Below are positions 13,595 to 61,483 of a DNA stretch of 64,000 nt, one piece after another. A program made the position numbers and the translations under genes. Position 1 is the first letter of the stretch, and each line of letters starts with the position of its first letter. The stretch comes from an uncultured Actinomycetota bacterium. GTDB taxonomy: Bacteria > Actinomycetota > Acidimicrobiia > Spongiisociales > UBA5794. Location: NCBI GenBank assembly GCA_963836085.1, contig CAWIHT010000014.1, forward strand, positions 148,530 to 212,529, given 5' to 3'. The notes beneath the pieces are model-generated. The model did no database searches. It was not told the DNA's origin and saw only the letters and a list, made by a program, of their open reading frames with translations.

Positions 13595-15937
13595 ATGGCT
13601 GACTTCTATCTCGGCGGGCCCGTTGATCCTCAGACGGGGAAGCGCCTCGAATCGCAGACAACGCACTACGAGGCCGAGGACCTCACCACCCATGGTGTGA
13701 TTGTGGGGATGACCGGATCCGGGAAGACCGGGCTCGGCATCATCTACCTCGAGGAAGCCCTTCGATCCGGGATCCCAACACTGATCCTGGACCCGAAAGG
13801 GGACATGACCAATCTCCTTCTCACCTTCCCCGACCTCGCACCCAACGACTTCGAACCATGGATCGACCCTGCGACAGCCCAGGACACATCGGTCGCCGAA
13901 GTCGCCGCCGACACGGCAGAGCTTTGGTCCAACGGTCTCGCGGGTTGGGATCTCGACGGAGCCGACATCGCCGACCTCCGCGAACGCGCCGGGTTCACGA
14001 TCTATACCCCGGGTTCGAAAGCAGGCGTTCCACTCAACATCGTCGGTTCGCTGGTTGCCCCTGACGGATCCTTCGACGACAGTGCGGAAGCTCTTCGTGA
14101 CGAGATCCAGGGATTCACCGCCGGACTCCTGGGCCTGGTCGGCATCGAGGCTGATCCGATCTCGTCTCGGGAGAACATCCTTATCGCCAACCTCATCGAA
14201 CACGCCTGGCGAAACGGCCAATCGCTCGACATGGACACGCTGCTCGGCTGGATCCAACGCCCCCCGATTCGCAAACTCGGCGTCTTCGACATCGAAGCGT
14301 TCTTCCCCGCCGACGACCGACTCGAACTGGCGATGAAGCTCAACGGCCTCCTCGCCTCACCAGGCTTTGGCACATGGATGGAGGGGGCGGCGCTCGACAT
14401 TCCGAGCCTCCTCTGGGATGCCGACGGCAGGCCGCAGGCGGCGATCATGTATCTCGCCCACCTCTCCGACGAGGAGCGCCAGTTCGTGGTCACCCTCATT
14501 CTGTCGAAGTTGATCACCTGGATGCGGTCCCAGCCCGGAAGCGGTGACCTGCGTGTGCTCGCGTACATGGACGAGGTTTTTGGATTCGTCCCACCGACAG
14601 CGAAACCCCCGGCGAAACAACCAATTCTGACACTCCTGAAGCAGGCGCGGGCGTTTGGGGTCGGGATGCTGTTGTCGACACAGAATCCTGTCGACCTCGA
14701 CTACAAGGCCATGTCGAATGCCGGAACCTGGTGCATCGGTCGGCTCCAGACCGAGCGAGACAAGGAGCGCATCCTGGAAGCGCTGACGTCGGTGACCGGA
14801 GATGTCGACATCAAGGTTCTCGATGAACAGATCTCGGGCCTGGCGAAACGGACTTTCCTGCTGCACAACACGCGTGACCGCGAACCGCAGATGTTCACGA
14901 CGCGATGGGCCATGTCGTATCTGCGTGGACCCCTCACCCCGACCCAGATCGGCAGCCTGACCGAGCGTCAATCGCCTGCTTCTGCGTCAACTGACTGGCC
15001 GACCAGCGCCCCACCCGAGCCGACGCCCGGGATCGATGATGGGACGGTCGCAATCATGCCGCCGGTCGCCGAGGGGATCGCCGCCTACCACCTCGATCCG
15101 GCAGCGGAATGGGCACCCACCGTGGCGGCGAGCGCCGCCCCGACCCGGTATGAGCCCGCTGCGGCAGTTCGAGTCACGGCGCGATACGACGAAACGCGCG
15201 CCGGCGTCGACCACGTCACGGAGTGGGAAGCGATTGTCGTTCCCTTGTCTGCCGGCGATCCGACGCCGATCGAGGTCGATCACGACCCTCGCGACTTCCT
15301 CGAAACAGCCGTCGCCGCCGTCCCGTACGCGCTTCCCGAAGCGCGGATCGACACAAAGACGTTCTGGTCCTCTTTGTCTGCCTCGATCAAGGAACAGGTG
15401 TACCGAGAAGGCAAGGTGACGGTCTTCAAGAACGCCCCCCTGAAGATGTACTCGCGGGTCGGCGAGTCGCGTGAGGACTTCGTTGCTCGATGCGACCGAA
15501 CTGCCGACGAAGCCGCCGATGCGGCCACGGCAGATCTCAAGGGGAAGTACGAGAAGAAGCTCCGGCGGGTTCAACTCGCGATCGACAAGTACGGTGCTCG
15601 AGCCGAAGCAGCGGCGGGCGATGCGCGCTCCGGCGACATCGACCTCGTCGCGGGCACCGTGTTCGACATGCTTGCCGGACGGAGCCGCTCGCGCAGCATC
15701 TCGTCGGCCACAAGAGCCAGACGGGCTGCGCAGCGACGAGTCGACGCTGCGAGCGAGCGGGTCGACGCAAAGGTCGCCGAGTATGAGGTCCTCCAGGAGG
15801 AGTTCCAGGACGAGGTCGGTGACCTCGTCGCCGAGTGGGATGACAAAGCGCAGGACGTCGAGGAGATGGAGATCGGCCTCGAGAAGAACGACATCACCGT
15901 CGCCGAGACGGTCCTCGTCTGGATCCCACGGGCCTGA
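13595..15937 (+). CDS. YjgR/DUF853 (HerA/FtsK-like) P-loop ATPase with ~300-aa C-terminal extension
   Basis: Walker A VGMTGSGKTGLG, ILDPKGD, AYMDEVFGFVPP and LSTQNPVDLD align with E. coli YjgR motifs. C-terminus is charged and coiled-coil-like. Confidence 0.7.
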   Translation: MADFYLGGPVDPQTGKRLESQTTHYEAEDLTTHGVIVGMTGSGKTGLGIIYLEEALRSGIPTLILDPKGDMTNLLLTFPDLAPNDFEPWIDPATAQDTSVAEVAADTAELWSNGLAGWDLDGADIADLRERAGFTIYTPGSKAGVPLNIVGSLVAPDGSFDDSAEALRDEIQGFTAGLLGLVGIEADPISSRENILIANLIEHAWRNGQSLDMDTLLGWIQRPPIRKLGVFDIEAFFPADDRLELAMKLNGLLASPGFGTWMEGAALDIPSLLWDADGRPQAAIMYLAHLSDEERQFVVTLILSKLITWMRSQPGSGDLRVLAYMDEVFGFVPPTAKPPAKQPILTLLKQARAFGVGMLLSTQNPVDLDYKAMSNAGTWCIGRLQTERDKERILEALTSVTGDVDIKVLDEQISGLAKRTFLLHNTRDREPQMFTTRWAMSYLRGPLTPTQIGSLTERQSPASASTDWPTSAPPEPTPGIDDGTVAIMPPVAEGIAAYHLDPAAEWAPTVAASAAPTRYEPAAAVRVTARYDETRAGVDHVTEWEAIVVPLSAGDPTPIEVDHDPRDFLETAVAAVPYALPEARIDTKTFWSSLSASIKEQVYREGKVTVFKNAPLKMYSRVGESREDFVARCDRTADEAADAATADLKGKYEKKLRRVQLAIDKYGARAEAAAGDARSGDIDLVAGTVFDMLAGRSRSRSISSATRARRAAQRRVDAASERVDAKVAEYEVLQEEFQDEVGDLVAEWDDKAQDVEEMEIGLEKNDITVAETVLVWIPRA

Positions 15938-15962
15938 CGCCGCCAACCCAGGGTTCTCAGCG

Positions 15963-23670: not shown

Positions 23671-24495
23671 CTACTTCGCTGCCGCGCCCGCGCTCGCTCT
23701 CGGCACCACGATCGGGCCCGTCTCGTGTTTCTGCTCTTCGTCGTACCACGAGAAGAACACCCATGCGATGGCGACCCAGAGCACCAGGCCACCGCCGATC
23801 TTCATGATGAGGCCGGCGATGATCTGGTCGGTCATCACGTCGATGCCCCAGAGCCTCGGGAACGTGGTGTAGATCTCGTAGAGCGGGGTCTCGCCGAGGG
23901 TCATGAACGATGCCGGGATGGTCGGAACCAGCGACTGGAGGAAGAGATACCCCATCTTGCCGAACGGGGCGAGCGTCTTCGTCTCCGGGATCGGATCCAT
24001 CACCGGCCACCACATCAGGACCGCCGAGATGAACAGCACGAGATGGGCAAAGAAGTGGAAGAAGTCGTTCGTCAGCATCAACTCGACCACCGAGGGGACG
24101 TGGATGAACGCAAGCCACACATTGAAGAACACCAGCGTGAACATCGGTCGAGTGATCACCTTCAACAGCGGGATGAATGGCTCGACGAGTGCGTGCATCA
24201 GCCAACCTGGCATGCCCCCGAGCAACAGCGGCGGTACGACCAGGGTGATCAGCATGTGCTCGGTCATGTGGAACAGGTAGAGGCGCTGTTCGCCGATGTC
24301 GTGCAGTGGCCAGGTCGAACTGATGAGGAGGAAGATGACCCCCGCGTAGTACATCACCCGCTGAGCCGTGGTGACCGGCGGCTTCCCTGGAGGGGCGTAT
24401 CGCCCGGCGAGCCTGCGGATCCCAAACTCGTAGATGAAGATCAGAGCAATGGCGACCCCGTACACGTCGAGGTGCGGGTGGAACGTGATGTCCAT
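23671..24495 (-). CDS. ctaG: Cytochrome c oxidase caa3-type assembly factor CtaG
   Basis: Polytopic protein with Caa3_CtaG-like sequence (HMTEHMLITLVVPPLLL). Last gene of the cta operon. Confidence 0.65.
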   Translation of the reverse strand: MDITFHPHLDVYGVAIALIFIYEFGIRRLAGRYAPPGKPPVTTAQRVMYYAGVIFLLISSTWPLHDIGEQRLYLFHMTEHMLITLVVPPLLLGGMPGWLMHALVEPFIPLLKVITRPMFTLVFFNVWLAFIHVPSVVELMLTNDFFHFFAHLVLFISAVLMWWPVMDPIPETKTLAPFGKMGYLFLQSLVPTIPASFMTLGETPLYEIYTTFPRLWGIDVMTDQIIAGLIMKIGGGLVLWVAIAWVFFSWYDEEQKHETGPIVVPRASAGAAAK

Positions 24496-24498
24496 GGG

Positions 24499-24786
24499 TC
24501 AGAGTGCCCGGAACACCGAGAGCATGACAATGAACAGGAGGATCGCTACGACCACAGCAATCCCGAACACGTAGCGGTATCCCTTGAGGTCGTACTTGAG
24601 GTGCATGAACACCGCGACGACCGTCACGAACTTTGCGGCGCCGAAGGCGATCAAGAGTGGGGCACGCACCGGGTCGAGGAACTCGACATACGGGATCGCA
24701 ATCTCGATTGCGGTCGCGACCGCGAGCGCTGCGGCTATCAACCAGTAGGTCTTCGGCGTCGGATGGGCGTGGGATGCGGTTGCCAT
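24499..24786 (-). CDS. ctaF: Cytochrome c oxidase subunit IV (prokaryotic CoxIV/CtaF)
   Basis: 95-aa, 3-TM protein tightly coupled downstream of ctaE. Confidence 0.65.
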   Translation of the reverse strand: MATASHAHPTPKTYWLIAAALAVATAIEIAIPYVEFLDPVRAPLLIAFGAAKFVTVVAVFMHLKYDLKGYRYVFGIAVVVAILLFIVMLSVFRAL

Positions 24787-24788
24787 GG

Positions 24789-25406
24789 TCAGATCTGCAG
24801 CAGGTAGACGATGGTGAAGATAACAATCCAGACGATGTCCACGAAGTGCCAGTACAGCGCTACCAGTTCGACGTTCATCCCGTGATCGGGTGACAGCCGG
24901 CTGCGGAGCGAGAACGCGACCAGCATGGCGATCATCAGCACACCACCGGCAACGTGGAGGCCGTGGAAGCCGGTCAGCATGTAGAACGACGATCCGAACG
25001 GGCTGGTACTGATCGTCAGCCCCTCATGCACGAACTCGGTGAACTCGAAGATCTGGCCGGCGAGGAACGCGAGACCGAGGAGCGCCGTTCCGACGAGCCA
25101 GATCCGCCCCTGCCGCTGATCGGACTTCTGGAACGCATTGTCCGCAAGCACCATCGTCAACGAACTCATCAGCAGGACGAACGAGGTGGCCGAGGTGAAC
25201 GGGATGTTGAAGATCTCAGCGCCCGGTCCTCCATTGGTGGTGTGCCGGTAGAGGAGGAACGTGGCGATCATCGCCCCAAAGAAGAAGACCTCAGACCCGA
25301 GGAACACCCACATCGCGGTCTTGCGTGTGCGGTGGATCGGATCGCCGTCTGCCTCGAAGTCGCTCTGACCGTCAACCTCGAAGACGCCATCGGTGGCCGT
25401 TGCCAT
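24789..25406 (-). CDS. ctaE: Cytochrome c oxidase subunit III
   Basis: COX3 family sequence. Start overlaps the ctaD stop. Confidence 0.85.
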   Translation of the reverse strand: MATATDGVFEVDGQSDFEADGDPIHRTRKTAMWVFLGSEVFFFGAMIATFLLYRHTTNGGPGAEIFNIPFTSATSFVLLMSSLTMVLADNAFQKSDQRQGRIWLVGTALLGLAFLAGQIFEFTEFVHEGLTISTSPFGSSFYMLTGFHGLHVAGGVLMIAMLVAFSLRSRLSPDHGMNVELVALYWHFVDIVWIVIFTIVYLLQI

Positions 25407-27286
25407 CAGTGCGCCTCCCTCGTAGCCGGTTCAGCGGCCCAACCAACGAGACCCCACAGCGTCACGACCGCGCCGACCGCGAGGACTCCGAACCCGATCG
25501 GGCCCGACGAAATGAACACGAGCCCGGCACCCAGGGTCGCGATTCCGGCGGAGGCAACGATCGGGTAGAACGACGGCGATGGCATGTGGATCCCGTGCTC
25601 TTCGACCACCACGTCCGGCTTGCCGGCCTGTTCCGGAGTGAGCTTGACCGAGCGGCCCTCTTCGTCAACACCGTACTTGCGGTACCAGAAGTCGTCCAGG
25701 TGGTGCACCACCTGGATCTCTTCGAAGTTGTAGACCGGCGGCGGTGAGGTCGTCGTCCATTCGAGGGTGCGGCCATCCCACGGGTCGTTGCCTGCCACTT
25801 TGCCGTTGCGGTAGCTGGCAATCAGGTTGTAGATGAAGAACAGGAATGACAGGGCGATCAGGAAGGCGCCGACCGTCGACATGAGATTCCAGACGTCCCA
25901 CCCCATCCCGTCGGCGTAGCGGTAGGTGCGGCGGGGCATGCCGTCGAGTCCGAGAATGTGCTGCGGAGCGAAGGTGAGGTTGAACCCGATGAACATGATC
26001 CAGAAGTTCCACTTCCCGATCGTCTCGCTCATCATCCGACCGGTCCACTTCGGGAACCAGTAGTACGCGCCAGCGACGTACCCGAACACGGCACCGCCGA
26101 AGAGCACGTAGTGGAAGTGCGCCACGACGTAGTAGCTGTCGTGTTGCTGCGTATTCGCAGGGACGACCGCGTGCGTGACACCGGAGATTCCCCCAATGAG
26201 GAACATCGCGATGAACCCGATGGTGAACAGCATCGGCGCGGAGAAGGTGAGACGTCCGCCCCACATGGTGCCGATCCAGTTGAAGATCTTCACACCCGTT
26301 GGTATCGCAATCAGCATGGTTGCAAGACCAAACCCTGCCTCGGCCACTGGGCCCATGCCGGCGGTGAACATGTGGTGAGCCCACACGCCGAAGCCGAGGA
26401 AGCCGATCGCGATCCCGGAGAACACGACGAACGAGTACCCGAACAGGGGCTTGCGGGAGAAGACCGGCAGGATCTCGGACACGATGCCGAACGCCGGCAG
26501 GATCAGCACGTAGACCTCAGGGTGCCCGAAGATCCAGAACAGATGTTGCCACAGCAGCGGATCGCCGGCCGCCTGCGCCTCGTAGAAGAGCCCGCCGAGG
26601 TTCCGGTCGATGAAGATCTGCCAGAGGCCGACGCCGATCACCGGGAGGCTGAAGATGAGCAGGAATGAGGACACGACGCTCATCCAAACAAAGACCGGCA
26701 TCCGCATGAGGGTCATCCCCGGGGCCCGCATCGTGAAGATGGTGGCGACGAAGTTGATCGATCCGGCAAGCGAAGCGAACCCGAGGAGCTGCGCCCCGAT
26801 CGAGTAGTAGTCCATCCGGACGTACTCCTGGATCTGCGTCGAGAGCGGGGCGTACCCAACCCATGCCCCGTCCGGCGAACCACCGAGGAAGAACGAAGAC
26901 GTCAAGAGAGCCACACTGAAGAGGAACAGCCAGAAGGCGAACGCGTTCAGCCGCGGGAAAGCGACGTCGCGCGCGCCGATCATCAGCGGGATGAAGTAGT
27001 TCTGGAAGGCAGCGGCGATCGGCATGATGACGGCGAACACCATCGTGAGCCCGTGCATCGTGAAGAGCTGGTTGTAGGCGTCCGCAGATACGAGCGTGCC
27101 GTTCGCGGTCGCCAGCTGCGTCCGGATCAGGAGTGCCTCGAGGCCGGCAACGATGAAGAAGACCAAAGACGAAACCGCATACATGATGCCGATCCGCTTG
27201 TGATCGACCGTCGTGATCCAACTCCACAGACCCTTCGTCGAGGGTGGTGTGTAGCCGAGGTCATCGGGGGTTGTGGTCAGCGCCAC
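25406..27286 (-). CDS. ctaD: Cytochrome c oxidase subunit I (with C-terminal extension)
   Basis: Unmistakable COX1 sequence (heme and CuB His ligands, GHPEVY). 626 aa. Confidence 0.9.
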   Translation of the reverse strand: MALTTTPDDLGYTPPSTKGLWSWITTVDHKRIGIMYAVSSLVFFIVAGLEALLIRTQLATANGTLVSADAYNQLFTMHGLTMVFAVIMPIAAAFQNYFIPLMIGARDVAFPRLNAFAFWLFLFSVALLTSSFFLGGSPDGAWVGYAPLSTQIQEYVRMDYYSIGAQLLGFASLAGSINFVATIFTMRAPGMTLMRMPVFVWMSVVSSFLLIFSLPVIGVGLWQIFIDRNLGGLFYEAQAAGDPLLWQHLFWIFGHPEVYVLILPAFGIVSEILPVFSRKPLFGYSFVVFSGIAIGFLGFGVWAHHMFTAGMGPVAEAGFGLATMLIAIPTGVKIFNWIGTMWGGRLTFSAPMLFTIGFIAMFLIGGISGVTHAVVPANTQQHDSYYVVAHFHYVLFGGAVFGYVAGAYYWFPKWTGRMMSETIGKWNFWIMFIGFNLTFAPQHILGLDGMPRRTYRYADGMGWDVWNLMSTVGAFLIALSFLFFIYNLIASYRNGKVAGNDPWDGRTLEWTTTSPPPVYNFEEIQVVHHLDDFWYRKYGVDEEGRSVKLTPEQAGKPDVVVEEHGIHMPSPSFYPIVASAGIATLGAGLVFISSGPIGFGVLAVGAVVTLWGLVGWAAEPATREAH

Positions 27287-27317
27287 GAGAGGTCTCCTTC
27301 AACGGTGGTGCAGGTGA

Positions 27318-28439
27318 TCACTTCCACGCCTCCAACAGAGCAACGAGTTCCTGTATCTGCTGCTCATCGAGCCCGTAGTCGGGCATGCCAAGGATCCGAC
27401 CGGCTTCGATGTCGTTCAACTCCGGCGTCATCGGTTTGATCGACGATGGGTCGTCGATCCAGGCGGCAAGGTGCTCTGCGGTGTTCTCTTCGAGCCCCGC
27501 AGCGATCGATGTGCGGCCTCCGAAGTGGGTGAGATCAGGGCCGAGAGCAGCGCCGACAACCTCTACCGTCCCGTCGCTCGCCGCCACCTTGGCCTGATGG
27601 CACGTCGTGCAGAACTGCGTGAAGGTCTCGTATCCGGCGGCTGCCTCTCCACTCGTCGGAATTGGAGCCGCCTCGAGTTGGCCGGCCGCCCACGCGTCGA
27701 AGTCAGCCTCGGAATCCACGAACACACGGAAGCGCATGTCGGCGTGTGCGAGCCCGCAGTACTCCGCACACTGACCGGGAACCATCTGCCCGGCGATGTC
27801 GGCGTCCGGCGTGATCTTCATGACGGTGTCCCGACCGGGAACGACATCGCGCTTCCCGGCGAGGCTTGGCACCCAGAAGCTGTGGATCACATCGACCGAT
27901 GTCATCGTCAGTTCGGACGTCTTGCCCGCGGGGATGTGCATTTCGTTTGCGGTCGTGAGCGGCCGCCCGTTCTCGTCAAGAATGTCCGGATACTGGAACT
28001 CCCACCACCACTGATGGCCGATCACGTCCACGCGCACGAAGTCACCTTCTGCCGCGCTTCGAAGGTCGAAAAGCGTGGTGAGGGTTGGAACAGCGATGAT
28101 CACAACGAGCACAACGGGGATGAGCGTCCAACCGATCTCCAGCTTGGTGTTCCCATGGATCTGCCTCGGTTCCTCCTCATTGCCCGGGCGCTTCCGGAAC
28201 CGGACAACGGCATAGGCCAGCGCCCCACCGACGACCACAAAGACAACGGTCCCGAGCACGAGGATGAAGTCCCAGAGCTGATCGATGGACTCGGCCTCGG
28301 TCGACCGCGGGTTCAGTGACGACTGGGGGAGGTTGCTCGAGCAGGACGCCAGCAGAAGCGCGCCGAACGCAACCGCAACCAGGGCGATTCGAAGCAGGAG
28401 GCGGCGGCGAGCGTCGTCGTTGCCAGCGGTTTTGTTCAC
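27318..28439 (-). CDS. ctaC: Cytochrome c oxidase subunit II with fused C-terminal cytochrome c domain (caa3-type)
   Basis: CuA motif CAEYCGLAHADM and heme-c motif CTTCH. Probable GTG start with lipoprotein signal RRRLLLRIALVAVAFGALLLASC, inside track ORF 28799. Confidence 0.85.
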   Translation of the reverse strand: MNKTAGNDDARRRLLLRIALVAVAFGALLLASCSSNLPQSSLNPRSTEAESIDQLWDFILVLGTVVFVVVGGALAYAVVRFRKRPGNEEEPRQIHGNTKLEIGWTLIPVVLVVIIAVPTLTTLFDLRSAAEGDFVRVDVIGHQWWWEFQYPDILDENGRPLTTANEMHIPAGKTSELTMTSVDVIHSFWVPSLAGKRDVVPGRDTVMKITPDADIAGQMVPGQCAEYCGLAHADMRFRVFVDSEADFDAWAAGQLEAAPIPTSGEAAAGYETFTQFCTTCHQAKVAASDGTVEVVGAALGPDLTHFGGRTSIAAGLEENTAEHLAAWIDDPSSIKPMTPELNDIEAGRILGMPDYGLDEQQIQELVALLEAWK

Positions 28440-28524
28440 GTAGTTCCCCAGGACGGCGACCGAAGTGGGCGGGATAGTAAGCGACGAAATTGTTTGCTGC
28501 AACGAGCTTTCTCGGAAATTGGAG

Positions 28525-29964
28525 CTAGGTCGCCGATTCGACGTCCGAAGGCGCGAATCTGGCCGCAAGCCAGGTAGTGAGCGGAACCGCCGCGACGAGG
28601 CCGATGCTCCCCACGAGAGTGCGCACGATCTCGACCGCGACGACCTCGCTGTTGGCGATCGTTCCGAGCGACTGACGGGCGAGGACGAAGAGCACCAGGA
28701 GCGGTAGCGACGCCCCCGCATAGGCCAGCAGTAGCGTGTTGACGATCGAAGCGATGTGATCGCGACCCACCCGCAATGCGCGGCGGAACAAGCCGGCACT
28801 CCCCAGCGAGGGATCGGTTGCCTTCAACTCCCATACCGTCGCGGCCTGGGTGATGGTCACGTCGTCGAGGGCACCAGCCGCTCCGAGGACGATCCCGGCG
28901 AGGAGCAATCCGGTGACGTCGATACCCTCGAAGAACGTCAGCAGCGATGTCTCCTCCGTGACGAATCCCGTGAACCGCGCCAGATCGACGACGATGGCGG
29001 AGAGTACGGCGGTCAGAACGAGCGCCGCGGTCATACCGGCCAGGGCGATCGTGGTCATCCGCCCGAATCCGTGGGCGAGATACATCGTGACAAACGCGAT
29101 GGCCGCCGAACCGACCACTGCAACCAGCACCGGACTTCGCCCATCGAGGATTGCCGGCAACACGAACGCCAGCAGGATGAGGACGCTCACTACGAGACCA
29201 ACCAGGGCGGTGGCACCACGCCAGCCTCCGAGGACGACGACGACGAGGGCGAACACGATGGCGACGGCCGCCAGCACGAGGCGGCGGTCGAAGTCGGCGA
29301 ACTGGTAGATCGACTGCGGGTCAACGAGCCGAACCGAAAGAACCTGCAGTTCGTCCTGGTCGTAGACGTAGTCGACCAGCACCGCATCCCCAACGGCGAC
29401 CGAGGCAGCGTCCTCGCCCCGGTACGCCTCGAACACTGCTGGTTGCTCGTTCCCGTCATCGTCGACGAGGAGCGAGATCGCGACACATTCGGTCTCTGGG
29501 TCGAACGAGCACGGTGCAGTGGCGACGGCGGTGACGGTCGCCGTGGGGGCGACGCGGGACAGCACCACCCGGTCACCCTCCGAGAACACCGGCGTTGTTG
29601 CTCCGGGGAGGAACTCTTGCGTGAACACGAAGCCATCCTCCGGACCGTCAGTGAGTTCGAATCTGACCACCGTGCAGGTTTGGGTCTCGATACCCGAACA
29701 AGGTGCCTCCGAGACACGCTGCACCGTTGCGTGGTGAAAGTCGGTCGGGACACCGATCGCCGCGAGGTCATCGGCTTGCTCCTGCGACGCCCCGGTCGGT
29801 CGCAGCAGGATCATCCCGAGGACGATGACGACGCCGAGAGCGACCCCGAATACGACGAATGGGTCGACCCGTCGGCGGTCGGTGGGGTCCGGCGAGTCGC
29901 TCTCATCGACATACGCTTGCCACTCGTCGGCCCGGTCAGAATCGAACAGTCCGTCTTCCGCCAT
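28525..29964 (-). CDS. YibE/F family polytopic membrane protein
   Basis: N-terminal TM, ~200-aa soluble region, then many TMs typical of YibE/F. Confidence 0.55.
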   Translation of the reverse strand: MAEDGLFDSDRADEWQAYVDESDSPDPTDRRRVDPFVVFGVALGVVIVLGMILLRPTGASQEQADDLAAIGVPTDFHHATVQRVSEAPCSGIETQTCTVVRFELTDGPEDGFVFTQEFLPGATTPVFSEGDRVVLSRVAPTATVTAVATAPCSFDPETECVAISLLVDDDGNEQPAVFEAYRGEDAASVAVGDAVLVDYVYDQDELQVLSVRLVDPQSIYQFADFDRRLVLAAVAIVFALVVVVLGGWRGATALVGLVVSVLILLAFVLPAILDGRSPVLVAVVGSAAIAFVTMYLAHGFGRMTTIALAGMTAALVLTAVLSAIVVDLARFTGFVTEETSLLTFFEGIDVTGLLLAGIVLGAAGALDDVTITQAATVWELKATDPSLGSAGLFRRALRVGRDHIASIVNTLLLAYAGASLPLLVLFVLARQSLGTIANSEVVAVEIVRTLVGSIGLVAAVPLTTWLAARFAPSDVESAT

Positions 29965-34110: not shown

Positions 34111-34323
34111 CTAGCGCGGATCTCCGTACGGTCGCGATGCGATGACGAGGCGGATGGATCCACCCGTGACCATTGCGATGAGGCCAACCGATGCCGCCAG
34201 CTTGAGCCAGATCGCTCCGCCCGATCGCCACGTCAGCACCATGAACGCAAGACACATCACGCACAGGAAAGCGATCGCAAGGACAAGAACCACCCAGGTC
34301 GTCAGAGAACGTGGAGCGTCCAT
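34111..34323 (-). CDS. Small hypothetical two-TM protein
   Basis: 70-aa hydrophobic ORF. No family. Confidence 0.3.
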   Translation of the reverse strand: MDAPRSLTTWVVLVLAIAFLCVMCLAFMVLTWRSGGAIWLKLAASVGLIAMVTGGSIRLVIASRPYGDPR

Positions 34324-34354
34324 GGGTTGAGTCTACGCGCAAGGTCCGGTGGTA

Positions 34355-35092
34355 CTAGGGCAGCCAGGGATCAACCCGAATCGGGACACCGAGGCTCTTC
34401 GCCGCATCGTCGATCGAGATCCAGGTTTCGTCGGCGCACGATTCGCAGGAGGTCCACAGCTCGTAGGTGTGTCTCCCCATCGCACGACCGCTGACGAATC
34501 CGCGAACGCCCCGGCGAGCGCAGTGCATGCAGTAGTTGCGTACCGACACACCGAGCAGTTCCGCCCGCGCGACGCGGCGGCACCGCTCTTCGCTCACGCT
34601 CGGGGGCTGCCACGCAACGGCACACAAGACTGCCACGGGGAGGATCGTTGCATAGATCCCGCATGAGAGGTCCCTGTCGAGCTTCGCTCGCGAGTCCCAG
34701 ACGCGCAGGCCGCATTTGCAGTGCTGGAGGTGACCGGGTTCGAACGGGTCACCGCCCATGTGGCAGAACGCAGCGTCAGTGACCGACCAGAGATCAGCGG
34801 CGTAGTCGGAGTACAACGCAGCGGTGTGGACCCGACCATCGGTGGCGAGCCTCGCGCGCTTCCATCCGCGAGGACTCCCCGTGGGAATCGCATCCGGGTT
34901 TCCGTCGGGCCATGGAGGCGGTGCGCCGCCACGTCGAGGCGTAGGAGGCGACGTCACGCAAATCCGCCCATAGCGGACACGAACGCGTCTCGTCGGTACC
35001 TGACCTGGCCTCGTTGCATCGGTGCAGCGTATGTCATGTGACCACCGTTCCGCCAGGGACGAACGACCCGACACTCGCGCGGGCTTCGGCAT
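34355..35092 (-). CDS. Hypothetical Cys-rich (probable zinc-binding) protein; real start may be internal (~34759)
   Basis: C-terminal half has HCKCG...C...NYCMHCARRG...SCESCADETW. N-terminal 110 aa are low complexity. Confidence 0.35.
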   Translation of the reverse strand: MPKPARVSGRSSLAERWSHDIRCTDATRPGQVPTRRVRVRYGRICVTSPPTPRRGGAPPPWPDGNPDAIPTGSPRGWKRARLATDGRVHTAALYSDYAADLWSVTDAAFCHMGGDPFEPGHLQHCKCGLRVWDSRAKLDRDLSCGIYATILPVAVLCAVAWQPPSVSEERCRRVARAELLGVSVRNYCMHCARRGVRGFVSGRAMGRHTYELWTSCESCADETWISIDDAAKSLGVPIRVDPWLP

Positions 35093-35117
35093 CCGCCGCG
35101 GAGCGCGGGCGAGTCTT

Positions 35118-35212
35118 TGGCGGAGGCGGACGGGAATCGAACCCGCCAGGGCACTCTCGCACCCTCATCGGTTTTGAAGACCGAGGGACCCACCAGGCGT
35201 CCGGACGCCTCC
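35118..35212 (-). tRNA. selC: tRNA-Sec (selenocysteine tRNA), anticodon UCA, 95 nt including CCA
   Basis: Reverse complement GGAGGCGTCCGGACGCCTGGTGGGTCCCTCGGTCTTCAAAACCGATGAGGGTGCGAGAGTGCCCTGGCGGGTTCGATTCCCGTCCGCCTCCGCCA. Anticodon loop is CUUCAAA with U33 and A37. Long variable arm GGGTGC-GAGA-GTGCCC. T-loop TTCGATT. Acceptor plus T stem is 13 bp. Terminal CCA encoded. Confidence 0.8.
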
Positions 35213-52121: not shown

Positions 52122-52844
52122 TTGGTTTGCGCGCTCCACGGATTCACACTCACCGGCGCTCAATTCGAGTCGCTCGCTACCGACGGTCTCCGTATCTGCG
52201 CTGCCGATCTGCCGGGGCACGGAGACACGCACGGCTCCCCGGTAGATGTTCCTGCAACGGTTGCGGCCATTGCCGGTTGGCTCTCATCGTTCGGCCAACC
52301 GATGCCGCTTGTTGGCTACTCCCAGGGCGGTCGCATGGCACTGCTCACGGCACTGAAGCACCCGCACCTCGTCGAACGGCTGGTCCTGATATCTGCATCG
52401 CCGGGCATTGCCGGCTGCGAGGCCCGGGCACAGCGTCGAGACCGTGACGAGCGTCTCGCCGAGCACATCGAGACCGTCGGTGTCGACGCCTTCCTCGACG
52501 AGTGGCTCGCCGGGCCGATCGCCGGGACCTCCCACCTCGACGACGAGGCGCGGCGGCGAGACCGTGCCATCCGCTCGGTGAACACGACGGCCGGTCTGGC
52601 CGCAGCTCTGCGGGGGCTGGGCCAGGGTACGCAACCGTTCGTCGGAGACCGGATCGTCGATCTTCGCATCCCGCTCCTCACCATCTCAGGCAGCGACGAT
52701 GCCCCCTACACCCGACGTGCCCGAGAGATGGCGGACACCGCCCCTTCGGGATCTCATGTGTCGATCGACGGAGCCGGCCACAACGTCCTCCTGGATGCTC
52801 CCGATGCAGTGGTCGCAGCCCTCGCGGACTTCGGGATCGTGTAG
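52122..52844 (+). CDS. Alpha/beta hydrolase (MenH-like)
   Basis: LHGF..., GYSQGG nucleophile elbow, C-terminal His. Confidence 0.6.
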   Translation: MVCALHGFTLTGAQFESLATDGLRICAADLPGHGDTHGSPVDVPATVAAIAGWLSSFGQPMPLVGYSQGGRMALLTALKHPHLVERLVLISASPGIAGCEARAQRRDRDERLAEHIETVGVDAFLDEWLAGPIAGTSHLDDEARRRDRAIRSVNTTAGLAAALRGLGQGTQPFVGDRIVDLRIPLLTISGSDDAPYTRRAREMADTAPSGSHVSIDGAGHNVLLDAPDAVVAALADFGIV

Positions 52845-54752: not shown

Positions 54753-55208
54753 CTACTCAGCTACTCCCAGCGCGTCCACCGCGAACACGTACTCCGCCAC
54801 CGGCACTCCCCCGACCAGATGTTCGTCGATGATGCGGTCGATGACGTCGACCGTGACGGAGTGGTACCAGACGCCGTCTGGATAGACGACCCCGATCGGG
54901 CCGCGCTCGCACACACGGAAGCAGTCGACCTTGGAGCGGAGGACCACCCCCCCGGTGCCACCATCGTCCGGCGGCGGTTCGTCGAGATCGGCTCCGCGCC
55001 ACGGCGCGGGGGCCGAGGCGAGATCAAGATCCTTCAGCCGCCGCTTCAGGTGACGCCAGACCATCTGGCTCTCCTCTGCCGTCGAACAGCGCGGCGTCGA
55101 TTGGCTGGCGCACAGGAAGATGTGGCGGTCCAGAGATCCGATACCGATCGAGCGGGAAATGGCGTCGAGGCGCTGCTGACTGTTGTCGACCATGGTGAGA
55201 GTCTGCAC
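54753..55208 (-). CDS. Thioredoxin-like [2Fe-2S] ferredoxin domain protein
   Basis: Cys spacing HIFLC(x7)C ... C(x3)C. Divergent from selD with a 44-nt spacer. Confidence 0.5.
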
Positions 55209-55252
55209 CGGCGTCGCGTTCCCCGCAAGCGACCGTCACTACGATGCCGGGT

Positions 55253-56299
55253 ATGAACTTCATCCGTCTCACGTCGTACAGCCACGGATCCGGCTGAGCA
55301 TGCAAGCTCGGAGCTGACGAGCTGGCGCAGGTTCTGCGCCGTCTGCCTGGAAACGAGATCACCGAACACCCGGATCTCCTTGTCGGAATCGCGGGGTCGG
55401 ATGACGCCGCCGTCTACCGCATCTCCGACGACCTCGCACTCGTCCAAACCGTCGACTTCTTCACGCCGATTGTCGACGACCCTGCCGAGTGGGGCCGTAT
55501 CGCCGCCGCCAACGCGCTGTCCGATGTCTACGCGATGGGCGGCACACCGCTGACAGCACTCCAACTGCTGTCGTGGCCGCGAGACGAGCTGCCGTGGAGT
55601 GCTGCAGCCGACGTCATCGACGGCGCGGTGGAGGTATTGGCTGAGGCGCGATGCACCCTGGTTGGCGGTCACTCGATCGATGATCGGACGCCCAAGTTCG
55701 GGTTCGCCATCACCGGCACCGTCCACCCGGATCGCATGATCACGAACGACGCTGCCCGTGCCGGGGATGCGCTGGTCCTCACCAAGGCTCTCGGAACCGG
55801 ACTCATCTCAACCGCGATCAAGAGCGGCATTGCCACGGCGGGTTCGCAGGAAGCAGCGGTTGCCACCATGCGAAGGCTGAACGCATCAGCATCTCGCGCT
55901 GCCGTCGAATCCGGTGTGCGGGCCGGCACCGATGTCACCGGATTCGGTCTCCTCGGTCACCTCGTGGAGATGCTGCGGGCGAGCGACGTCACCGCCGTTC
56001 TCGATGCTTCGGCGATCCCGATCCTCGAGGGTGCACTCGACATCGCGGCCGACGGCACCGTGCCGGGAGGCACGAAACGCAACTTCCGTTCGGTCGAATC
56101 GGTGGTGGACTTCGGCGCACTGCCGCCAGAGATGCAGACGTTGCTTGCCGACGCGCAGACGAGCGGCGGACTGCTCCTCGCCGTGCCGGAAGCCGATCTT
56201 CCAGCACTCGTTGCCGGGATCACCGGTGGCGGGGATCTCGCTGCAGTCATCGGCCGGATCACACCGGCGGCCACCGATTCACTGGTCACGGTCCGCTAG
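55253..56299 (+). CDS. selD: Selenophosphate synthetase (selenide, water dikinase) with in-frame UGA selenocysteine codon at 55295-55297
   Basis: N-terminus MNFIRLTSYSHGSG-U-ACKLGADEL aligns to E. coli SelD IRLTQYSHGAGCGCK with UGA at the Cys17 position. Downstream DDAAVY, FFTPIVDDP, ANALSDVYAMGG. C-terminal ORF 55535-56299 is in the same frame (AIR-synthase-like fold, TDVTGFGLLGH). Confidence 0.85.
55304..55339 (+). promoter_or_regulatory. Candidate SECIS-like hairpins immediately 3' of the selD UGA
   Basis: AGCUC-GGAGCUGAC-GAGCU starts 8 nt after UGA, and GCGCAG-GUU-CUGCGC starts 28 nt after UGA. The second has an apical GGUUC loop. Confidence 0.4.
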
Positions 56300-59776: not shown

Positions 59777-61483
59777 CTACTGGCTGAGGTACCGATTGGT
59801 GATCGGGAGTCGCCGGTCCCGCCCAAATCCCTTGCGGGTGATCTTCACACCCGGGGGTGCTTGACGGCGCTTGTACTCGTTGCGGTCGACCATGCGTCCG
59901 ATGCGGGACACCAGCGCTCGATCGTATCCGGCCTCGGTGATCTCGTTCACGGTCCGGTCTCGCTCGATGTACTCCTCGAGGACCGCGTCGAGGACGTCAT
60001 AGGGCGGGAGCGAGTCGGTGTCGAACTGATCCGGGCGGAGTTCGGCAGATGGGGCTTTGTCGATGATCTCCTGAGGGATCATCACGCTGTTGCGGTTTCT
60101 CCAGCGAGCGAGGCGGTAGACGACGGTCTTGTAGACGTCCTTGAGCACGGCGTAGCCGCCGGCCATGTCTCCGTAGAGGGTCGCGTAGCCGACGGCCATC
60201 TCCGACTTGTTGCCGGTCGCGACGACCATACCGCCGAACTTGTTGGACACACCCATCAGGATCGTCCCACGGATTCTGGCCTGGAGGTTCTCTTCGGCAA
60301 CACCGGACGGGGTACCGTGGAAGAGCGGATCGAGGGTCTCGAGGAACGCCCCGAACGCCTTCTCGATCGGAATGACCGTGAACCGGCAGCCGAAGTTCTC
60401 AGCCAAGGCCCGCGAGTCCGCGACCGATCCCTCGGATGAGTAGCGCGACGGCATCGTCAGCGTGTGCACCGCTCTCGGACCGAGTGCGTCGACCGCTACA
60501 GCGACGGTCAACGCAGAGTCGATCCCACCGGAGGATGCGATCACAACTTCTTTGAATCCGTTCTTCGTCACATAGCCGCGCAGTCCTGTGACGAGTGCCT
60601 CGTAGACGGCGGCTTCGTCCGAAAGACGATCCACCGAGTCCGGTGTGCGAATCGGATCCCGGCCGGTCGCAGCGTCCACCGCCGGTACGGCTTCCACGGT
60701 GCGGTCGCGCCCGGTTGGGACCGGAACATCGAGGACAAACAGTTCCTCACTGAACTGCGGTGCCCGATAGACAAGGGATCCTTCGGCGTCGAAGACCATT
60801 GAATCGCCGTCGAAGACGAGTTCGTCCTGCCCTCCGACGCAGTTCACGTAGACGATCGCCGCGGAGCTTCGCTTCGCCTCGGCCGACAGCAATTCCACAC
60901 GCTCGGCGCCCTTCCCCGCGTGGAACGGCGAACCGTTCAGATTCAAGAGCAGTGTCGCTCCAGCCTCGGCCTGACGGGCCGGCGGGCCGTGCGGCGACCA
61001 GATGTCCTCGCAGATCGAGACGCCGGCGGCAACACCGGCGATCTCCCAAAGCCGCGTCGGCTCGCGGCTCTCAGCGAAGTAGCGGGCCTCATCGAACACC
61101 CCGTAGTTCGGGAGAAGCTCCTTGTGATACACCCCCACGATGCGCCCGCCGGCAAGCACGGCCGCCGCATTGGCAACACGCCGCTCAACGGAGTCGTCGT
61201 CGAGTACGCCACGATCGAGCGGATCGACGAATCCGACCACAACCGCGCATCGGCCGGAAGCCCTGGCCAGTCGATCCAACACGCCGAGGTTCTCTTCGAT
61301 GAACCCCTCACGCAGGACCAGATCCTCGGGCGGATAGCCGACGATTGCTAGCTCGGGGAGAAGCAGCACATCGGCCTCGGCATTCTCAGCGAAGTGCATC
61401 GCCTCCAGGATGCGTTCCTCGTTGCCGAGGAGGTCCCCGACGGTGAGGTCGATCTGCGCTCCGGCGACCCTGATCGTGTTCAT
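59777..61483 (-). CDS. nadE: Glutamine-dependent NAD+ synthetase
   Basis: N-terminal CN-hydrolase domain plus C-terminal NAD synthetase with PP-loop SGGIDS. Confidence 0.85.
   Translation of the reverse strand: MNTIRVAGAQIDLTVGDLLGNEERILEAMHFAENAEADVLLLPELAIVGYPPEDLVLREGFIEENLGVLDRLARASGRCAVVVGFVDPLDRGVLDDDSVERRVANAAAVLAGGRIVGVYHKELLPNYGVFDEARYFAESREPTRLWEIAGVAAGVSICEDIWSPHGPPARQAEAGATLLLNLNGSPFHAGKGAERVELLSAEAKRSSAAIVYVNCVGGQDELVFDGDSMVFDAEGSLVYRAPQFSEELFVLDVPVPTGRDRTVEAVPAVDAATGRDPIRTPDSVDRLSDEAAVYEALVTGLRGYVTKNGFKEVVIASSGGIDSALTVAVAVDALGPRAVHTLTMPSRYSSEGSVADSRALAENFGCRFTVIPIEKAFGAFLETLDPLFHGTPSGVAEENLQARIRGTILMGVSNKFGGMVVATGNKSEMAVGYATLYGDMAGGYAVLKDVYKTVVYRLARWRNRNSVMIPQEIIDKAPSAELRPDQFDTDSLPPYDVLDAVLEEYIERDRTVNEITEAGYDRALVSRIGRMVDRNEYKRRQAPPGVKITRKGFGRDRRLPITNRYLSQ

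Follow-up and report, generated by a model that had tools for sequence, protein, structure and literature searches.

An in-frame UGA at the catalytic position of selD, followed by a conserved SECIS-like hairpin, in an uncultured Acidimicrobiia-like actinobacterium

Here we describe a selD gene whose product is very probably a full-length selenophosphate synthetase carrying selenocysteine (Sec) as its catalytic residue 15. An in-frame UGA would specify this Sec, with the second of two downstream hairpins (helix 2) serving as the SECIS element for SelB-mediated Sec insertion. The gene lies in a 64-kb stretch of DNA that was analysed as a whole (hereafter, the window), and the features on which this reading draws are as follows.

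55253–56299, + strand: selD (selenide, water dikinase), 348 codons plus a TAG stop with Sec as codon 15; identified by translation, TIGR00476, NF002098 and 3u0o
55295–55297, + strand: in-frame UGA read as the Sec codon, homologous to E. coli Cys17; placed by alignment and by relatives
55240–55245, + strand: TACGAT, a −10-like TAnnnT box, with 7 nt between it and the selD ATG
55305–55323, + strand: spacer hairpin (helix 1) between the UGA and the putative SECIS core; stem 55305–55310/55318–55323, loop 55311–55317, from the minimum free energy (MFE) fold
55324–55340, + strand: putative bacterial SECIS (bSECIS) core hairpin (helix 2), the presumed SelB-binding element; stem 55324–55329/55335–55340, loop GGUUC at 55330–55334
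35118–35212, − strand: selC, tRNA-Sec (anticodon UCA), the likely decoder of the selD UGA; found by ARAGORN and Rfam RF01852

Translation from the ATG at 55253 gives MNFIRLTSYSHGSG-UGA-ACKLGADELAQVLRRL..., the residues after the UGA being ACKLGADEL.... The TGA at 55295–55297 is the only one in the frame, the next stop is the TAG at 56297–56299, and the frame continues without a break into the 254-codon open reading frame (ORF) starting at 55535, the sole piece of the gene in the mechanical ORF list. For profile scoring, Cys was placed at the TGA of the 348-aa SelD. The SelD profile TIGR00476 then scored 397 bits against a cutoff of 125 and covered profile positions 1–309 of 311, beginning at residue 5 and running across the TGA; NF002098 scored 364 bits (cutoff 299). 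A phmmer search against the PDB aligned SelD residues 2–340 with residues 4–338 of E. coli SelD (3u0o; E = 1.4e-80), pairing the TGA codon (residue 15) with Cys17 and Lys18 with Lys20. The N-terminal Gly-rich loop is present, with HGSG-U-ACK aligned to HGAG-C-GCK of 3u0o, and the AIRS and AIRS_C (PurM-like) domains (PF00586 and PF02769) are found in precomputed annotations of the identical C-terminal fragment and of all homologues. Together, these results identify the gene as selD and place the UGA on the catalytic Cys. The original prediction, which had put an in-frame UGA at the position of catalytic Cys17 in a frame left open into the ORF at 55535, is thus borne out by the translation and by the 3u0o alignment, and the comparison with TIGR00476 that it had proposed likewise shows SelD N termini aligning across the UGA, with the PDB alignment in agreement. 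It had also anticipated that an automated caller would give only the C-terminal 254 codons; the public entry, P0033, is exactly that 254-aa fragment (100% identical). Compared with the Cys-type E. coli enzyme, the window protein shares 339 aligned residues and the motif SHG(A/S)G-[C/U]-xCK but would carry Sec in place of Cys17, and hence would require a UGA, a SECIS element and the Sec machinery. A general reassignment of UGA was considered and rejected, since TGA is the terminator of 14 of the 27 family-supported genes in the window.

To place the UGA in a comparative context, one genome per species was scanned for related loci, which yielded 21 loci with 50–92% identity. Most come from uncultured Acidimicrobiia or other Actinomycetota; the remaining labels are Verrucomicrobiales/Akkermansiaceae, Gemmatimonadota/Longimicrobiales, one Saprospiraceae and one unclassified bacterium. 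Two observations had been named in advance as counting against Sec at this position, namely Cys codons in close relatives and a lack of coding signal upstream of the UGA. Neither was seen. TGA occupies the homologous codon in 21/21 loci, within the motif (S/C)(H/S/A)G(S/A)G-UGA-A(C/S/A)KL, and codons 3–14 vary mainly at third positions: among the 11 closest sequences, the numbers of variable sites at first, second and third codon positions are 4, 3 and 9, respectively, against 12, 12 and 12 (that is, all sites) over the 36 nt preceding the ATG. Pairwise codon differences across codons 3–14 comprise 195 synonymous and 89 nonsynonymous changes. The difference between the two sides of the ATG indicates that protein-coding conservation starts at 55253, and the same ATG is the conserved start in ten close relatives; in L001, an upstream in-frame ATG runs directly into a stop.

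Two public contigs deserve a separate remark. L007 (CAXMQO010000061.1), labelled 'uncultured Saprospiraceae' (Bacteroidota), has a selD that is 77% identical to that of the window and shares the ferredoxin-like/selD/mgtE synteny of the Acidimicrobiia loci; judged by this resemblance, the contig is probably mis-binned. L022 is near-identical to the window: over the first 12.5 kb the two mismatch at 11 positions, and an indel follows. Its NAD synthase gene (14245–15952) is called as two pieces of 209 and 361 aa, against one uninterrupted ORF of 568 aa in the window (59777–61483), which points to a frameshift or an assembly difference between the two.

At the protein level, all matches above about 64% identity in a collection of 5.8 billion proteins are N-terminally short (mostly 318–326 aa, with coverage of 93% or less), as expected of gene callers that stop at the TGA. 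Full-length homologues appear at 59–63% identity and carry Cys at the Sec position, as in SHGAGC[GA]CKLG. The DNA of four of these and of one further homologue (P0110) was examined, and each has TGC or TGT as the Cys codon. The SelD described here and its Cys homologues form a classic Sec/Cys homologue pair.

The region upstream of selD contains little that is conserved. In ten close relatives the sole conserved upstream feature is a TAC(G/T/C)(A/C)T box, spaced from the ATG as is the TACGAT of the window, to which it corresponds. No Shine–Dalgarno sequence is visible before the selD ATG, and a sigma-70 consensus scan and an intrinsic terminator scan around selD returned nothing. The TAnnnT box 7 nt before the ATG, taken with the lack of a Shine–Dalgarno sequence, suggests that the selD mRNA may be leaderless; the Sec codon would then lie only 42 nt from the mRNA 5′ end. 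Leaderless mRNAs are common in Actinobacteria.

selD is located between a divergent gene for a 151-aa ferredoxin-like protein and mgtE, and the selD–mgtE synteny is common to ten relatives, comprising the nine Acidimicrobiia-type loci L001–L009 and L013. The 151-aa gene (54753–55208, − strand) is separated from selD by 44 nt between the start codons and is conserved at full length beside selD in five relatives (L001, L002, L007, L009 and L013; 71–91% identity). It has no Pfam match, and its match to NF041612 (thioredoxin-like 2Fe–2S ferredoxin) is below threshold, at 48.6 bits against a cutoff of 150. The gene may have a functional connection with selenium metabolism.

The window also encodes a tRNA-Sec. 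The original prediction had pointed to such a gene 20 kb away, and ARAGORN and RF01852 both recover it at 35118–35212 (− strand), the latter at full length (1–91) with 72.9 bits, above the gathering score of 47. Neither selA nor selB was found among all large ORFs of the 64-kb window, and both genes would therefore have to lie elsewhere in the genome if the UGA is decoded as Sec. We also scanned 63 ORFs in the 10-kb flanks of 15 related loci, with figures referring to the 25 most frequent families. Among the families listed, selA and selB were not found in the flanks of the Acidimicrobiia relatives, SelB was absent altogether, and selA appeared only next to the Verrucomicrobiales loci L012 and L018. 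In L012 (8604–12495), tRNA-Sec, a Sec-type selD and selA are adjacent, and in L018 selA lies near selD. The Acidimicrobiia-type relatives instead have mgtE beside selD, and in the window selD is clustered with none of selA, selB and selC, the tRNA-Sec gene being 20 kb from it.

A screen of the window for in-frame TGAs flanked on either side by coding signal returned no further selenoprotein candidates; the screen needs at least 50 open upstream codons, so it is blind to selD itself and to similar N-terminal cases. Three TGAs that it raised were rejected. On inspection, those at 52688 and 610 on the − strand lie opposite better-supported + strand ORFs, and that at 24499–24501 (− strand) is an ordinary stop, with the ctaG start one codon later. 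The surrounding cytochrome c oxidase cluster (23671–28823, − strand), which encodes a CtaG-like protein, COX1 and a COX2–cytochrome c fusion, is conspicuous for its codon-position composition (GC1 about 0.57, GC3 0.84–0.88). Some 900 bp separate PPK2 from selC (34233–35117); this gap was inspected for a small split selenoprotein gene, and no convincing coding frame was found in it. The longest ORF near selC (34355–35092, − strand; 245 aa) is Cys-rich, has an atypical codon-position GC and matches no Pfam or NCBIfam family, and its C terminus (…ISIDDAAKSLGV…) gives the impression of excisionase-type helix–turn–helix proteins. selC is a known integration hotspot in enterobacteria, and the ORF might be a mobile-element remnant.

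Next to the UGA, the original prediction had described two stable hairpins as a recoding signal. Both are present in the MFE and centroid folds of 55295–55360, with the MFE structure joining them in a junction, and the second proved one base pair longer than the predicted 55325–55339; an additional U55323–G55341 pair is optional. Thermodynamically, by contrast, the 66-nt region is not exceptional (z = −0.85), with 35 of 200 shuffles folding as well, so the case for the hairpins rests on comparative evidence.

For this comparison we used an ungapped 60-column alignment of 22 sequences, in which helix 2 corresponds to columns 30–35 paired with 41–46. The helix 2 hairpin forms in 22/22 sequences, with 6/6 pairs in 21 of them and 5/6 in one. 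Overall, 99.2% of its cells are paired and compensatory double changes occur at three of the six pairs (G–C to C–G, G–C to A–U and C–G to U–A), although the 22 sequences represent few independent lineages and, by inspection of the rows, roughly five independent compensatory or wobble events. In L012 and L017 the C–G to U–A change couples an Ala-to-Val with an Arg-to-His substitution. All covariation measures for helix 2 exceed those of all 500 column shuffles and of every slid control.

Because the peptide A-Q-V-L-R can form such a stem through the complementarity of its codons (GCG with CGC, CAG with CUG), two controls were run. When synonymous codons were resampled from the codon usage of the window with each peptide held fixed, the full six-pair helix arose in about 2% of draws (P(6/6) ~0.02), with a mean of 3.5 of 6 pairs; helix 2 uses the non-preferred codons CUG and GCG, the preferred ones in the window being CUC and GCC. 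The other control was a set of five Cys-type homologues. Two of these, L023 and L024 (selD products P0104 and P0113, with TGC at the Sec position), have a perfect copy of the hairpin, UGGCGCAGGUNCUGCGCCG, with 6/6 pairs. In L025, which has the same AQVLR peptide, the helix has been lost through synonymous changes (4/6 pairs), and the two further homologues retain 3/6 pairs, so that the hairpin is lost in L025–L027. The hairpin of L023 and L024 looks like a remnant SECIS left by a recent Sec-to-Cys conversion; such a 'remnant SECIS' has been reported (PMC1794560) and matches the retention seen in some of the Cys forms. Since these two Cys-type genes keep an identical hairpin, the hairpin alone is no proof of current SECIS function. 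Together, these results demonstrate that the helix 2 RNA is under selection beyond the constraints of protein and codon usage.

Helix 2 also agrees with the published bSECIS consensus, which describes a loop of 3–9 nt on an upper stem of 4–16 bp, one or more Gs among the first two loop nucleotides, in most cases with a G or U next, a UGA-to-loop distance of 16–37 nt and an MFE of −7.5 kcal/mol or lower (PMC13188914). The window hairpin has a 5-nt loop (3 nt if G55330 pairs with C55334) on a stem of 6–7 bp, the loop begins GGU.. or CGU.. in 22/22 sequences with G37 and U38 of the alignment invariant, the spacing is 32 nt (55298–55329) and the energy is −12.8 kcal/mol for 55323–55341. By these features, helix 2 is the only one of the two hairpins that behaves like a SECIS element. 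A recoding role is thus upheld, through covariation and the bSECIS consensus, for the second of the two predicted hairpins and not for the first, a lineage-specific structure that lies too near the UGA. The covariance-model check that had been suggested for the sequence after the UGA gave no support: no SECIS family of Rfam was found at the gathering threshold in the whole window or at E ≤ 10 in 55270–55380, where the only matches were the chance-level STnc40, P5 and Six3os1_3. Bacterial SECIS elements are short and gene-family-specific, and a match in Rfam is not one of their defining features. As a separate observation, the RNAalifold consensus favours pairing of the UGA itself within a small hairpin (55295–55299 with 55306–55310) that excludes helix 1; its columns are almost invariant, so covariation neither supports nor refutes it.

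The E. coli fdhF SECIS, a SelB-binding minihelix, offers a known counterpart. Its core is GCA-GGUC-UGC, with the loop roughly 19–20 nt after the UGA. The window core, GCGCA-GGUUC-UGCGC, has a similarly short, G+C-rich stem and a small loop starting GGU. The two differ in that the window loop starts 32 nt after the UGA, the window spacer contains a separate small hairpin and not a continuous lower stem, and a bulged U is not evident in the window.

The established bacterial pathway (PMC13188914, PMC1794560) allows us to propose how the selD mRNA is decoded. We suggest that the hairpin at 55324–55340, with its stem of 6–7 bp and a GGUUC loop set 32 nt beyond the UGA, serves as a bacterial SECIS during translation. 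SelB, carrying GTP and the Sec-tRNA-Sec made from 35118–35212, would bind the apical part of helix 2 and deliver Sec as the UGA enters the A site, so that termination is avoided. Helix 1 (55305–55323) sits in the spacer, within the stretch that the ribosome must unwind, and would probably be melted while the UGA is in the A site; it could therefore be at most an accessory or spacer element. The SelD produced in this way would make selenophosphate for SelA. As this product is the selenium donor for SelD's own Sec, selD would depend on itself; positive feedback of this kind has long been discussed for Sec-type SelD.

Other explanations of the same sequence have to be weighed against this one. 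The TGA might be a nonsense mutation or a sequencing error in a Cys-type selD, making the gene a pseudogene or an assembly artefact, and indeed a single base change turns TGC or TGT into TGA and the public gene caller takes the TGA as a stop. But the near-identical, independent assembly L022 has the same 254-aa truncated call, the TGA recurs in all 21 relatives across several phylum-level lineages, the 14 codons upstream of it are under purifying selection, the RNA helix downstream is selected and a tRNA-Sec is present. We give this explanation practically no chance, and conservation appears to have effectively refuted it already. Hardly more probable is that translation terminates at the UGA and a functional, N-terminally truncated SelD is made from a downstream start, for example as a product of 254, 318 or 325 codons. 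Gene callers do find such starts, and most close protein entries have 318–326 aa; yet different callers choose different starts, none of which is a conserved Met codon, and conservation as protein is seen both in the 14 codons preceding the UGA and in the stretch from the UGA to the internal starts. A truncated SelD would, moreover, lack the Gly-rich N-terminal loop that carries the equivalents of Sec/Cys17 and Lys20, and mutagenesis of E. coli SelD has shown Cys17 and Lys20 to be needed for catalysis.

Read-through of the UGA without Sec is also very improbable, if slightly less so. Here a near-cognate Trp, or Cys carried on tRNA-Sec, would be inserted, with the hairpins as a generic read-through stimulator; selA and selB were not seen in the window, and non-Sec read-through has been proposed for the homologous UGA of insect SPS1-UGA genes (PMC4561486). 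Against it, the tRNA-Sec is canonical, the hairpin agrees with the SelB-type bSECIS consensus, down to the G that opens the loop, selD is clustered with tRNA-Sec and selA in relatives, and Trp at the catalytic Sec/Cys site would be inactive. The last alternative concerns which RNA element SelB binds. Helix 1, or a composite three-way structure, could be the SECIS in place of helix 2: helix 1 is nearer the UGA, as in E. coli fdhF, its loop starts GG if the stem is taken as 5 bp, and the MFE structure holds both hairpins in one junction. We regard this as unlikely, though the least so of the four, because helix 1 is paired in only 86.7% of cells, shows a double change at one pair against three in helix 2, and lies 12–13 nt from the UGA, outside the 16–37 nt of the consensus. 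It is broken in four to five sequences, including all four Verrucomicrobiales and the Acidimicrobiales locus L011, which form other small hairpins instead. Sec insertion directed by helix 2 remains the reading that we prefer.

Haemophilus influenzae has a Sec-containing SelD. The enzyme is the second most widespread selenoprotein of prokaryotes, and Sec in SelD is textbook knowledge (PMC1794560, PMC4561486, PMC13188914). Some 19% of SelD genes in prokaryotes specify Sec, 'always in the same position' (Mariotti et al., PMC4561486), selenoprotein genes are routinely mis-annotated (PMC4561486), and Sec-type SelD has been catalogued in Rubrobacter xylanophilus, Symbiobacterium thermophilum, Geobacter, Clostridium and others (PMC1794560). 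The gene described here shares with these the enzyme family, the N-terminal catalytic UGA, the existence of Cys-type homologues, a putative bSECIS in the coding sequence just past the UGA and mis-annotation by gene callers. We see no difference of substance, the host here being an uncultured Acidimicrobiia-like actinobacterium in which selD stands apart from selA, selB and selC, with the ferredoxin-like gene and mgtE as neighbours, and selD is thus an ordinary member of the well-documented Sec-type SelD family in such a genome.

A bolder reading, which we consider unlikely, is that in this aerobic Acidimicrobiia lineage Sec-type SelD is the main or only selenoprotein keeping the Sec-decoding trait, perhaps with an atypical architecture: a probably leaderless mRNA, Sec at codon 15, a SECIS core 32 nt away behind a lineage-specific spacer hairpin, and selD unlinked from selA and selB. 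If true, this would represent a distinct architectural subclass of bacterial SECIS, and the divergent thioredoxin-like 2Fe–2S ferredoxin might supply reducing power or selenide.

The finding extends a well-documented pattern by one clade and opens no new question. It also provides a clean, small example of how RNA structure constrains synonymous, and even nonsynonymous, codon choice within a coding region. Its practical value lies in annotation: the public calls for this gene (254 aa) and for most relatives (mostly 318–326 aa) are without the catalytic loop, and through such truncated calls the selenium metabolism of uncultured Acidimicrobiia may be misread and their decoding of UGA as Sec missed.
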